From the NCBI RefSeq assembly GCF_044647545.1, contig NZ_CP172818.1: a stretch of 64,000 bases of DNA. One strand, written 5' to 3'. Each line of letters begins with the position of its first letter. Within the stretch, counting starts at the first letter, position 1. Source of the stretch: Escherichia coli (GTDB lineage Bacteria > Pseudomonadota > Gammaproteobacteria > Enterobacterales > Enterobacteriaceae). Below the pieces are notes generated by a model. The model did no database searches. It was not told the origin of the DNA and saw only the letters and a program-made list of their open reading frames with translations. A program made the position numbers and the translations under genes. This document shows positions 50,958 through 55,361 of this stretch, piece after piece.

Positions 50958-53900
50958 TTACCAGCTATATTTCACACCCAGCATGCCCTGAGTATCGCTA
51001 TAGCCTTTATCACCTAGTTGCACACCGACATTCCCCCACAGGCTAAGGTTGTTATTTACTTTCGCCTCAACCCCGGTACGTACTTCACCGAGATTACGCG
51101 CACCATCACGGCTTACGGTTTGACCATTCATCTTCACGGCGTAGACTTTGCTGTTGTTGATCCAGTTCGCTTCAATGTAAGGCTGGAACTCACGCTGTTT
51201 ACCATTGTCACGCTGGTGTAGTCGTCAGCAGAACGGTTATCGGAACTGACGCTGTTATCAAACCAGTTATACAGCGCCCAGCTGTCAACATAAGCGCCGG
51301 TCTTATTCGCATCGTTCTGATACCAGGTCGCGTACAGTCCTGCGCTGTAACCGCTGATGCGCCCATCCGATTTATAACCCACATGATTACTCTGAGTATT
51401 ACTGTGCTGATTGGCATAGCCTGCCATGACGCCGAGATGCCAGCGATCCTGCGCGTTGCTACTCCACTGCGCCAAATCGCCGCCCTTGCCATATTAATGG
51501 CAGAGTCGGAACCGAAAGCAATTTCCCCCCCACGATATCCGTCGTACCCTGATACGCCGCGGAATCGTTGTTAAGAGTCAGGATCCCGGTACCCAGTTTT
51601 GTCACATCACCGCTACCGCTGATACTGTGCGTCATCGCCCAGCTACGCTCAGTGGAGATGGTGAGCAGGCCATTATTGATAACGGAAGCATCACCCAGGT
51701 TTTTCTGCTCGTTGACGCTGAGCGCGCTGCCTGTATCAATGTTGAATTGCCCCACAAAGCGGCTATTATCGCCATCCAGCTCTACATCTGTCCTGGCGGT
51801 TGCGCTCACGATACCCTTCCCGCTTATGCCATTGCGCAGTTCGCCAGTCACGTTTTTTAGCGTTAACAGACCGTTATTGGCAATATTTCCGCTGCCTAAC
51901 CCCTGCGTATTATCGAGGCTGACTTCCGCATTTGGGCTAATGCTGGTTAACGCATTGTAGCGTGCATTAAGCCCCTCGATAGCCAGCGTTCCCCCTGTAA
52001 CATTCAGGTTTCCGCCACCTGTCAGTTCACCCTGACTGATCCCACCTTTATTTACCGTCAGCGCCCCCTCTTTGAACAAAACAGTCGAACCCATCTGCCC
52101 GGTGAATGTCTCTACCGTCTGCGTCGATCCATTAAGATCGACGATGGCCGCGTTGCTGATGTTCAGTTCCCGGGTGTTGCCAAGTGCACCATCCGCATCG
52201 GTACGTAATGTCCCCATCTGAACGTAGGTTGCCCCCTGATAGTCGTTCTGAGCGTTGGAAAGCGAAACCTGTCGCACCGTATTGATTGCCAGATCCCCTT
52301 CACCACCGATTTTTGCCGACATATCGGCCGTTGCGCCATAGGCTCCGCCATGTTCGGCTAACGTCAGCTTTTGCCCTCCATGGATGTTCAGCGCTTTCAG
52401 CCCATAGTTAACGTACAAACCATCACCTGGTGCGGTCGTGAGGCGGAATCCATAATCACCCTCGGCGACCACCGTTCCGTTTTGCGCAATGTGTAACGTT
52501 TTGTCCGCTTCCACCTCGTCGCCCTGTAAATCACGTAACGTTAATGAGCCACCCGACCCAATAACCGTTTGCGCCTTCACCAGTTGAACGCCGACATGGC
52601 TATCATCGTGTTCCAGCAAATTGAGCGTCGTCAGAGGGTTATTCGCCATGGGATCATTCCACGGTTTAGGCACGTCGATAAGCACGTCGCCCGTCCCGTT
52701 TACCTTATAGTTACGGCCTTTCCAGGTGTAGTCACTCGCGCCGACAACCAGCGTATCGACGCTGATATATCCCTCTGCAAGCGTCGCAGCAGGAATATCC
52801 GTATCGAAAATGAGCGTACCGCCATTCATGGCCAGTCCACCAATGGATTGCTCTCCCACGTTTACCGATGTGGTATTTTCAATGTCAGACTGCAACATCG
52901 CGTGAGTAAGCGCAGCGGTGTTGTCGCGTTCCAGAGTGAAGGTACTGTCTTTCAGTTGGGCAACACCGGCGAATTCAGTCCCTGTTGCATGGGTAAAGCC
53001 AAACATCTTGTCGGAGGATGACAGCTGCACTCGCATCAAGCCATCGCCTTTGAGCGCATTGGTCAGCGTGTAATCTCCTGCGCTGTTCGTTGATGCGAGA
53101 ATGTCGAGCGTACCGGGGCTTGCAATGGTGACTTCACTCGAACCCATGCCTGTTACCCCATCTGCCGTATGTGACGCAATAGTCAGGAGGCCGTCATTGA
53201 CCAGCGTTTTACCGCTATAAGTATTCCCTGCATTGAACACCGTATGGCCTGCATCATGCATCACTTTTCCGTCTTTATCGTCACCCGTAATCAGCATATC
53301 GACCTGGTAGCCGGCATCACTGTTATTGGTATGATTAAAGACAAAAACGCCTTCGCCAAGACCAAACTCCACTTTCGTCGCATTGGTAATAAACCCGGCA
53401 TCTGCCGCTACCTCACCGTGAGCAGCACCAATGTTTAGCGTTCCTACAGCAGGCTCAAAAACACCTAAGTAAACTTCTCCACCTTCGACATTCAGCGTGC
53501 CGTTATTCGTCAGGGTTAACGTACCTGTGCCAGTCGTCCCTACGTTCATATTGAATGTTTCAAGAAGAGAGTTCTGCCCATCCACCCGCACGTCGCCCTT
53601 ACTTTTGTCATTCAGAGCTATCTGTGTATCACGCGCTTTAACTATACCTCCGGTGGTAATATTCAGTTCACCCGTGCCTAATACACCGACCTGTAGCAAT
53701 TGGGCGTTAGTAGATGACGTTTTTAAATTCCAGAGACTATGCGTTGAAATATTAACTATCCCCTTACCGGAGGCATTTCCTCCGATAAATCCATAGCCCG
53801 TTGAATTAAGGGTGGCACCATTACTGACATTTACGATGCCGCTACCAAAATTACCGACATTGATACCTACAGTATCGAACGATGATGTCGCATCCATCAG

Positions 53901-55361
53901 GTTCAGTGTGCCGATACCGCTTGCTTTATCGCCCAAAAAAGTAATATTTTGCGATACGAACTTACCGCCATCGCTGATATTGAGGTTTCCGACGCCCGCA
54001 ACACCAATAGTGGTATAGACATTCTTATTGACCTCCCACATCCCCCCCGTGGTGATGCTAACCTTCCCGACGCCGGTTTCTCCATAACCGAGTGAGCTTC
54101 CTCCGTTGCTGACAACAAGCCCCTCATTACTGATATTCATTTCGCCGTGGCCGTCATAACCAAGATTAGTTCCGAGATTAGTGATAACGGAGTTCTTATC
54201 CTTAACAGTAATGTTGCCTGTGCCTGTTTCTTTCATCCCCGCAGTGATAATTCCCGAATCGACTTTGCCTTCACTAGAGACATTAAGTTCACCGTCGCCA
54301 GCATCACCGATATAGATATAGCGGAAAGCTTCGCCCGTTCCGAGGAAATTCCAATGCCCTTTATCGGTCACGTTGACGACACCGTGGGAACCGTCCTGAA
54401 CGCCCACCAATGAATATTCTTTGTTATTAATCAGTCCATTATTGGAAATATTGACTTTGCCATTACCGAAATATCCATTATAGAGTCTGCGTACCGTAAT
54501 GACAGAGTCTTGATCCTGCACATTCAGGGTTCCGATACCGGTGGCATTGCCACCGATAATCGTATTTTCAGCCGTAATTAGCCCACCCTCGCGAATAGTC
54601 GCTTCCCCAGTTCCTTGATTACCAATTTGAAATTCAATTGAGGAATCGTTATTTTTCATTAGCCACTCACCGCCCTTTTCAACGACAACCTGGCCATTAC
54701 TGCCCGCCTGATAGCCTAAAATGGCGACGATTGAACTCGTGACGTAACCCTTATCCGTAATATTTAATGAGCCCGTACCGTAACTCCCTATTTCGAATAA
54801 TTCGGTCGTCAAAACCGAGTCCTCTTCCTCAACATTAACCGTCCCGACGCCTGCAGCTTGAGTACCTAATCTTAAATAGCCTCCATCGACGTGACCCTTC
54901 TGTTTAATATTCAGCGTCCCCGTTCCGGATTGACCCACATTTAAAGGCCTTGCATTATTTCCGCTATCATACAATCGCCAGGTGCCACCCAAAACATTAA
55001 CGGTGCCCTCTGAGTCCTCATTAGCGCCAATGACGCTGGTAGTAATAGTGGTTAAGGAGGCATTACCGCCAGCCAAAATATTAAGCACTCCAGTGCCATA
55101 CCAGCCAACCAGGTAGGCATCATAAGCAACATTAGTATCAATATTGGTAATCTGATCATTATCAACTTCCAGACTTGCACCAGACGCTGAACCGCTTAGT
55201 GCCAGCAAAACACCCAGCGTCAATCTACTGAGTTTCGTTGTCAGTCCAGAGGATTTACGCAAATTAACCGTCGATGTTTTACCTACCCTGCGAGTTAATT
55301 CCGAGCAGACCTGAAATGCCTGTAGGGTGCAATTCCATATCACGCGATAGATTCTATTCAT
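50958..55361 (-). pseudogene. yneO: AIDA-like autotransporter adhesin disrupted by frameshifts
   Basis: 1300-aa passenger-domain ORF (51459-55361) followed by overlapping out-of-frame ORFs (51208-51492, 51134-51475) and a C-terminal barrel segment ending in ...W at 50961. Confidence 0.8.

Follow-up and report, generated by a model that had tools for sequence, protein, structure and literature searches.

A decayed ECSE_1600-family autotransporter allele at the yneO locus of Escherichia coli, broken by three inherited lesions

A 64,000-nucleotide stretch of the Escherichia coli contig NZ_CP172818.1 (assembly GCF_044647545.1; referred to below as the window) carries a large autotransporter adhesin gene that can no longer encode its secretion machinery. 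The region is almost certainly a terminally decayed allele of an ECSE_1600-family classical (type Va) autotransporter, in which a one-nucleotide loss and two internal deletions, all inherited, have destroyed that machinery. An earlier note, made from the sequence alone, had proposed a large AIDA-I-type autotransporter gene at the yneO locus, inactivated by frameshifts near the passenger/barrel junction. The type of gene is borne out by its family score and domain matches, the locus by its place between hipB and lsrK, and its death by three lesions and an incomplete barrel. As to how it died, a frameshift is indeed present (the loss of one nucleotide from a G8 tract), but alignment to an intact ortholog shows that the damage is mainly due to deletions of 784 and 232 bp. 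The consequence is a correction at the level of annotation, from a frameshifted gene and possible sequencing artefact to a deletion pseudogene. The finding is real, ordinary and already known in kind, the broken allele being annotated as a pseudogene in related genomes, and it matters little by itself. The features of the locus are listed in Table 1.

Table 1. Features of the pseudogene and its flanks, in window coordinates.
Feature	Position	Strand	Details
Upstream intergenic region with presumed promoter	55362-55890	-	AT-rich, 31-33% GC
Whole pseudogene, decayed ECSE_1600-family (yneO/ydeK-ydeU) type Va autotransporter allele	50958-55361	-	4404 nt, versus 5421 nt intact
Extended signal peptide region (ESPR), aa 1-48	55218-55361	-	Pfam PF13018, E 3.2e-15
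Passenger in native frame to aa 1279	51532-55175	-	T5SS/PEP-CTERM-associated repeats and PATR; repeat-rich at the protein level
Poly-G tract 1	54042-54048	-	G7, in frame
Lesion 1, poly-G tract 2	51525-51531	-	G7 (intact alleles G8); -1 frameshift after codon 1279
Out-of-frame tail of long ORF	51459-51524	-	KLLSVPTLPLIWQGRRFGAVE; stop at 51459-51461
Lesion 2, 784-bp deletion	junction 51485/51484	-	Intact nt 3879-4662, aa 1293-1554 absent
Barrel fragment B, native frame	51221-51484	-	Intact aa 1555-1642; PF03797 profile positions 37-132, E 6.9e-13
Lesion 3, 232-bp deletion inside barrel	junction 51219/51218	-	Intact nt 4929-5160, aa 1643-1720 absent
Barrel fragment C, native frame	50958-51218	-	Intact aa 1721-1806 and stop; PF03797 profile positions 223-254
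Conserved 12-pair hairpin	50921-50951	-	Arms 50951-50940 and 50932-50921; starts 7 nt after the stop codon

Locus and family membership

The order lsrK, pseudogene, hipB is found in the window, and yneO of K-12 is placed likewise. Against the NCBIfam model NF011422, with its cut-off of 2335 bits, the intact comparator scores 4182 bits and the product of the 1300-aa ORF 2845 bits, the latter aligning to profile positions 1-1281 of 1806. Both the score above the cut-off and the position between lsrK and hipB place the gene in the ECSE_1600 family and the region is the ortholog of E. coli K-12 yneO (formerly ydeK/ydeU). The literature found on yneO, ydeK, ydeU and ECSE_1600 consists of gene lists, with no experimental study of the family's function among it.

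AIDA-I, MisL, ShdA, YfaL/EhaC and IcsA are built on the same plan as the intact ortholog (ESPR, beta-helical passenger, autochaperone and barrel), but the ortholog falls below the cut-offs for AIDA-I (NF033176, 338 versus 1200), MisL (NF011841, 467 versus 1297), ShdA (NF011847, 211 versus 2249) and YfaL/EhaC (NF007285, 196 versus 1459). The ORF in the window gives no match to any of these four models, and its passenger is not orthologous to those of AIDA-I-type adhesins.

The three lesions and the barrel remnants

The lesions were placed base by base by alignment to the intact reference allele WP_097301655.1 of E. coli JML285 (5421 nt, 1806 aa) and to K-12 b4696, and native-frame translation of every segment confirmed the placement. 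Over shared columns the window is 98.1% identical in nucleotide sequence to the JML285 allele, with the same architecture as far as aa 1279; the JML285 protein, however, has the autochaperone, linker and complete barrel from which two blocks are absent in the window (Table 1). Domains of the intact protein are mapped as ESPR at aa 1-47, AC_1 at 1332-1438, Pertactin at 1335-1452 and barrel at 1525-1784; the AIDA-I transport unit 4MEE matches aa 1345-1806 (E 6e-87) and the IcsA autochaperone 3ML3 matches aa 1293-1457.

Following lesion 1, translation stops 21 codons on. Lesion 2 takes out the autochaperone, the linker helix and the first barrel strands, the AC_1 and Pertactin-type segment lying wholly within it, so that no autochaperone is left. 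Lesion 3 costs about 77 residues in the middle of the barrel, and the two internal deletions together amount to 1016 bp. Restoring the reading frame at lesion 1 would not bring function back.

Each of the ORFs listed in the earlier note was confirmed, all on the minus strand: 51459-55361 (1300 aa), 51208-51492 and 51134-51475. On the same strand, a terminal ORF at 50958-51137 ends in GVKYSW and a stop codon. The suspicion that this C-terminal segment is a genuine barrel end proved right, since GMLGVKYSW and the stop are identical to those of the intact protein, and the C-terminal aromatic residue (beta-signal) is present, though disconnected from the passenger ORF. Fragment B makes up most of ORF 51134-51475, and its translation differs from the intact protein by one substitution. 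Since the losses add up to a multiple of three (1 + 784 + 232 = 1017 = 3 x 339), fragment C returns to the absolute frame of the long ORF. The KYSW segment and both ORFs downstream of the long one are barrel remnants, read in three different frames. The profile positions covered by the two fragments are all that survives of the 255 in the barrel model, about half being missing, and no complete in-frame 12-stranded PF03797 barrel is found; the remnants lie in different frames with a stop codon ahead of them.

ORF 51208-51492 (minus strand) was considered as a gene fragment in its own right and rejected, as it leaves the native frame after its first codons and lacks a Pfam match. The antisense and out-of-frame ORFs at 52569-53021, 51568-51960, 53497-53796 and 55875-56129 (all plus strand) likewise have no Pfam match and are taken as chance ORFs.

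The junctions of the two large deletions are blunt and free of IS remnants, and in the alignment with the intact allele no microhomology can be seen at either of them. DNA-level repeats in the window are limited to two short pairs, at chance level. A homologous or IS-mediated origin of the deletions, which was considered, is unsupported by these junctions.

The earlier note described the gene as consistent with the yneO pseudogene, which holds for the locus and the family but not for the lesion. In K-12, yneO (b4696) is full length at 5422 nt and carries a single +1 frameshift, G7 to G8 at nt 3955, in the third poly-G tract. It is highly improbable that the window holds this same allele, otherwise full length and with a single frameshift at the passenger/barrel junction: locus and family are shared and nucleotide identity over shared columns is 97.7%, but K-12 has neither deletion and retains G8 in tract 2. 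The K-12 lesion site lies within a segment that is deleted in the window, and the two inactivations are therefore independent.

Inheritance of the broken allele

Of 5426 complete E. coli genomes, at least 40 and perhaps as many as 84, of ST648 type, carry essentially the allele of the window; the higher figure counts genomes in which the 521 nt that span the junction match at a single site, and the lower those listed with a single 525-nt piece. All three lesions were confirmed in both of the relatives aligned in full. These are FDAARGOS_497 (EGY17_RS21520, NZ_CP033850.1) and strain ST648 (FH07_RS12180, NZ_CP008697.1), and in both the gene is annotated as 'ECSE_1600 family autotransporter; frameshifted', the flag on the FDAARGOS_497 copy coming from PGAP. 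The ST648-type alleles share with the window G7 in tract 2, the left end of the large deletion, the 232-bp deletion and a 13-nt loss downstream, and the alignment has 0 mismatches over the gene and, as in FDAARGOS_497, over window positions 57620-50828.

Within the gene, FDAARGOS_497 differs only at junction 1, where the ST648-type alleles keep a GCTA, giving a 780-bp rather than a 784-bp deletion and a long ORF that ends in IWQG and a stop. Among complete E. coli genomes no other assembly has the exact junction 1 of the window, and an exact scan for it over one genome per species gave 0 matches; this 4-nt detail rests on the window's assembly alone. Outside the gene, the FDAARGOS_497 and ST648 genomes, unlike the window, have lost hipBA and retained a further 4.6 kb of the adjacent fimbrial operon.

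The distribution of the allele bears on whether the gene might be intact, its apparent breaks being sequencing or assembly indels, a reading with next to no probability. One lesion is a 1-nt homopolymer change, a classic error site, and the 4 nt by which junction 1 differs are peculiar to the window's assembly. Against this, 1016 bp are absent in two blocks, and complete genomes that were sequenced independently have the G7, both the left and the right deletion end and the 232-bp deletion as well. The earlier note had held that reads exposing the frameshifts as errors would restore the gene; that route does not apply to deletions, and the genomes that share the allele, at least 40 and up to 84, are independently assembled. 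The three lesions form a clean lineage marker that ties the genome of the window to ST648-type E. coli, with the 784-bp form being specific to that genome.

Signal peptide, passenger and fate of the truncated product

No obvious signal peptide had been noticed at the start of the long ORF, but aa 1-48 match the ESPR, and the gene thus has an N-terminal Sec signal peptide of the ESPR type found in type Va autotransporters. The ESPR is followed by a basic stretch, a hydrophobic LTLGVLLAL and SGSASGA, the core and c-region running to about aa 62 (about position 55176). A GGAG Shine-Dalgarno sequence lies at 55369-55372, 7 nt 5' of the ATG. The passenger is of the beta-helix repeat type, with TIGR04393 in 8 stretches (E 1.9e-51) and PATR/TIGR02601 at aa 1253-1281, and aa 1-1279 are 97.7% identical to the intact protein. 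An exact-sequence look-up of the 1300-aa product returned no record, because the window-specific 4-nt loss alters the tail of the ORF. The dN/dS between the window and the intact allele is 0.24, versus 0.12 between two full-length-type alleles, a small gap that mostly reflects divergence from before inactivation.

By analogy with type Va secretion, the intact 1806-aa protein would enter the periplasm by the Sec route through its ESPR-type signal peptide, its C-terminal 12-stranded beta-barrel would insert into the outer membrane, and the roughly 1450-aa repeat-rich passenger would be threaded to the surface with the assistance of the autochaperone segment. The truncated ORF, with ribosome-binding site and signal peptide kept, would if transcribed yield a periplasmic passenger that could not be exported and would probably be degraded. 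Synthesis of the passenger alone, as the earlier note suggested, is thus tenable at the level of translation, but a product that lacks autochaperone, linker and barrel should be incapable of surface display. The lineage would then be unable to display the ECSE_1600 adhesin.

It is very unlikely that the 1300-aa ORF is a functional gene in its own right, for instance one for a periplasmic protein or for a passenger that leaves in trans by way of the barrel of a paralogous autotransporter. The Shine-Dalgarno sequence, the ESPR signal peptide and 1279 native codons are retained, but the autochaperone for folding and export of the passenger is deleted. The tail is not conserved either, the ORF of the usual deletion allele being 8 codons shorter owing to GCTA, and relatives with the same deletions have decayed further: the ST648 copy has a G11 frameshift at codon ~440, and CLSC36 has lost the 5' part of the gene. 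We know of no established case of trans-export of a classical autotransporter passenger. The G11 run lies in tract 1 of the 'ST648' assembly only, the other deletion-allele genomes having G7 like the window; it was dropped as a lineage feature, being either private to that assembly or an error.

Poly-G tracts and phase variation

Tract 2 was surveyed across E. coli in records with identical 40-nt flanks, where G8 is found in 2370, G9 in 432 and G7 in 348, with G6 also seen, although long-read homopolymer errors may inflate these counts. Changes of +1 and -1 recur in about a quarter of the genomes with identical flanks, and the G8 tract is a hot spot at which frameshifts have arisen repeatedly across the species. 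This one tract explains much of the repeated inactivation of a widespread, uncharacterised adhesin gene (two clusters of the intact 1806-aa form have 18868 and 5726 member sequences), and the survey is relevant to the scoring of adhesin repertoires from genomes, especially from long-read assemblies.

A homopolymer tract that varies between isolates, as tract 2 does, is a mark of contingency genes. The family could be a phase-variable locus switched by poly-G slippage, with the window in an OFF state; in its fuller form, full-length ECSE_1600/yneO lineages would use the G8 and two further G7 tracts as slipped-strand switches, and the window would be an OFF variant later locked by deletion. Either form is unlikely. 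The length of tract 2 ranges from G6 to G9 with unchanged flanks, K-12 is broken in tract 3, and three G runs of at least 7 occur in the intact allele, versus 0.67 expected from shuffles (P about 0.03). However, the two deletions make switching back irrelevant in the window, and within clones the tracts seem to keep their length: alignment scores and spans are the same for the listed O121:H19 assemblies (with G7 in the one checked at tract 2), several O26 genomes have G9, and G7 is found in the ST648-type genomes that were listed or aligned. This clonal pattern fits one-off mutations at a hot spot better than rapid switching, and the mutations that a long-term stationary-phase evolution study reported in yneO comprise IS2 insertions and a SNP, none of them a poly-G change. 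A literature search for homopolymer switching in E. coli autotransporters turned up no paper; if the switch were real, the adhesin would be a phase-variable contingency gene by a mechanism rare in E. coli.

Flanking regions

In K-12, the orthologous ydeK/lsrK spacer is listed as a 'promoter island' (PMC3661553), a class for which very low productive transcription and H-NS binding are reported; its row in the H-NS table does not have the '+' marks that other islands carry (PMC3661553). The presumed promoter upstream of the pseudogene may likewise be silenced.

An Rfam scan of positions 47000-59000 (E <= 0.1) gave nothing, and a terminator scan did not call the hairpin that follows the stop codon, its tail being too poor in T. 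The hairpin folds at -24.1 kcal/mol (z = -3.3), and its arms are identical in the window, JML285, K-12 and ST648. A terminator had been suggested at 50925-50949; a stable hairpin is present and its core agrees with that placement, but it is followed by AATATTGCC, with no canonical U-run, and a terminator role is plausible, though unproven. The hairpin is possibly a terminator or an RNA-end stabiliser between the pseudogene and the hipBA promoter.

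The decayed gene and its family

On the minus strand, lsrK is followed by an AT-rich spacer, a long ORF, two overlapping short ORFs and a 59-aa ORF, and then by hipB and hipA. All of the ORF coordinates in the earlier note are correct. The long ORF scores 2845 bits (cut-off 2335) against profile positions 1-1281 of 1806 in NCBIfam NF011422, 'ECSE_1600 family autotransporter', and GGAG lies 7 nt 5' of its ATG. The note had seen no obvious signal peptide; this is wrong, since an ESPR extended signal peptide is present at the N-terminus (PF13018, aa 1-48, E 3.2e-15). Profile searches identify eight T5SS/PEP-CTERM-associated repeats and one PATR repeat in the passenger, and a DNA repeat search indicates that its repeat richness lies at the protein level, not the DNA level. 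The counterpart locus in K-12 MG1655, also flanked by hipB and lsrK, is the annotated pseudogene yneO (b4696); intact alleles are 5421 nt long and encode 1806 aa, as in strain JML285 (WP_097301655.1). The observation is real, and the general interpretation, that an autotransporter gene at the yneO locus is dead, is right. As a pseudogene it is unremarkable: the family is known, and the gene already has a pseudogene annotation in sister genomes. The literature searched contains no functional study of the ECSE_1600 family.

Features of the yneO locus in the window and domains of the intact protein
Feature	Position	Strand	Basis
lsrK	55891-57483	-	ORF map
AT-rich spacer, 529 bp	55362-55890	-	ORF map, composition
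Long ORF, 1300 aa	51459-55361	-	ORF map
Poly-G tract 1	54042-54048
Lesion 1, tract 2: G8 (intact nt 3831-3838) to G7	51525-51531	-	alignment
Lesion 2: 784-bp loss, intact nt 3879-4662, aa 1293-1554	junction 51485/51484	-	alignment
Lesion 3: 232-bp loss, intact nt 4929-5160, aa 1643-1720	junction 51219/51218	-	alignment
First short ORF	51208-51492	-	ORF map
Second short ORF, overlapping the first	51134-51475	-	ORF map
59-aa ORF ending ...GVKYSW*	50958-51137	-	ORF map
Remnant, intact aa 1281-1292	51486-51522	-	native-frame translation
Remnant, intact aa 1555-1642	51221-51484	-	native-frame translation
Remnant, intact aa 1721-1806	50958-51218	-	native-frame translation
ESPR	intact aa 1-47		domain search
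PATR	intact aa 1253-1281		domain search
Autochaperone AC_1	intact aa 1332-1438		domain search
Pertactin-type segment	intact aa 1335-1452		domain search
Autotransporter barrel PF03797	intact aa 1525-1784		domain search

Lesions and loss of the translocator

Three differences from the intact gene are placed by BLAST and MAFFT alignment with JML285, K-12 and two ST648-type genomes, relatives that carry a near-identical broken allele. The native frame of the long ORF ends at codon 1279 and is followed by 21 out-of-frame codons and a stop at 51459. The junctions of both large deletions are blunt: nothing is inserted there, and the alignment shows no useful microhomology at either. Because the lost bases total 1017 (3 x 339), the last segment again shares the absolute frame of the long ORF, but a stop codon lies between the two. 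The earlier attribution to frameshifts is incomplete: one frameshift is real, but most of the damage lies in the two large deletions.

Each remnant, translated in its native frame, matches the intact protein, so the second short ORF is for the most part genuine barrel sequence; the first is a chance reading, without a match in a Pfam search. Structural matches in the intact protein are to the solved transport unit of AIDA-I (4MEE, E 6e-87), over the C-terminal 460 residues, and to the autochaperone of IcsA (3ML3), over residues 1293-1457. With the 784-bp deletion go the entire autochaperone, the linker and the initial strands of the barrel; the 232-bp deletion removes ~77 residues from mid-barrel. 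Of the 255-position barrel model, only 37-132 and 223-254 are still represented. Repair of the frameshift could not give back a working translocator.

In type Va secretion the passenger requires its own barrel and autochaperone to pass the outer membrane. The 1300-aa barrel-less product would be exported by Sec and retained in the periplasm, where it would probably be degraded. Its expression is doubtful. The orthologous K-12 spacer, ydeK/lsrK, is catalogued among the 'promoter islands', which as a class are reported to bind RNA polymerase, to be mostly bound by H-NS and to yield almost no productive transcript, although the ydeK/lsrK row has no '+' marks in the H-NS table (PMC3661553). GC content of the spacer in the window is 31-33%.

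An inherited allele distinct from that of K-12

Of 5426 complete E. coli genomes, 84 match a 521-nt query across the three lesions at one site each, and all 40 among the matches listed have it as one piece of 525 nt. The broken allele is inherited and not a sequencing artefact. FDAARGOS_497, an ST648-type genome, has 0 mismatches to the window across 57620-50828, and its gene (PGAP: 'ECSE_1600 family autotransporter, frameshifted') differs only by four additional bases, GCTA, at the lesion 2 junction, giving a 780-bp deletion. Since GCTA agrees with the intact sequence at this position, we infer that the 780-bp form is ancestral and the further 4-nt loss secondary. The exact junction of the window was found in no other assembly among complete E. 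coli genomes, in a product look-up or in a one-genome-per-species scan. Further decay is seen in two relatives: CLSC36 no longer has the 5' portion of the gene, and the 'ST648' assembly has G11 in tract 1, private to that record. dN/dS is 0.24 for the window versus the intact allele and 0.12 for JML285 versus K-12, a difference that fits relaxed constraint without being decisive.

The proposed match to yneO holds for locus and family but not for the allele: K-12 yneO has kept its full length (5422 nt) and reads G8 in place of G7 at nt 3955, a site that falls inside the 784-bp deletion. Inactivation in the two strains is independent.

Poly-G tracts and population context

Intact copies are common, and two 1806-aa clusters comprise 18868 and 5726 member sequences. 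The intact allele has three G runs of at least 7, versus 0.67 expected from shuffles (P ~0.03); the third is the site of the K-12 lesion. Among complete genomes with identical 40-nt flanks, tract 2 is G8 in 2370 records, G9 in 432 and G7 in 348, with G6 also present, counts that long-read homopolymer errors may inflate. Several O26 genomes (O26:H11 11368 among them) and a single O103 genome have G9; one O121:H19 genome and the ST648 type have G7. The tracts mark a recurrent route of inactivation by frameshift across E. coli. Given such errors and tract lengths that look stable inside clones, we read tract 2 as a mutational hot spot, not as demonstrated phase variation. Loci related to tracts 1 and 2 in our comparison are L001, L003, L005 and L006.

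The locus is deletion-prone at either end and inside the passenger. Public proteins (P0058, P0078, P0070 and P0003-P0120) include dozens of in-frame shortened variants of about 1450-1714 aa and some in which the autotransporter is fused to FGGY-kinase (lsrK) or HipA domains.

The 3' flank and neighbouring genes

A hairpin of 12 pairs lies 3' of the pseudogene stop (arms 50951-50940 and 50932-50921; -24.1 kcal/mol, z = -3.3 versus shuffles), with the tail AATATTGCC. It had been suggested as a terminator; it is real, and the four alleles compared agree throughout its arms, but a consensus terminator scan makes no call at 50921-50951. It may insulate the hipBA promoter, which starts ~40 nt beyond it. 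Four TATCC-N8-GGATA palindromes (HipB operators) lie 5' of hipB at ~50780-50880, the first ~40 nt past the hairpin. At ~50898-50901 the window and ST648-type genomes lack 13 nt present in K-12 and JML285. In those two strains these bases make up a small additional stem (GGCG-CATCAA-CGCC) with TTATTT after it, which may belong to the true terminator of the intact gene.

ST648-type genomes, otherwise free of mismatches to the window, have cleanly lost 1.6 kb of hipBA, from inside the hipBA operator region to ~60 nt ahead of the hipA stop codon, leaving two operator palindromes and the hipA 3' end. The window retains hipA-hipB (49221-50827; counterpart, comparison locus L006 6795-6798) and so represents the state before this deletion. 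The mechanical hipA ORF (49160-50539, minus strand, 459 aa) opens at an upstream ATG and overlaps hipB; position 50482 has the K-12-type start (MPKLVTW..., 440 aa), which shares one base with the hipB stop codon. At ~48372, 4.6 kb of the neighbouring fimbrial operon present in FDAARGOS_497 (fimbrial subunit, IS2, chaperone and usher start) is missing from the window, leaving a truncated usher ORF of 382 aa (47146-48294, minus strand) like K-12 ydeT. The window thus has a K-12-like structure at this point together with flanks of ST648-type sequence.
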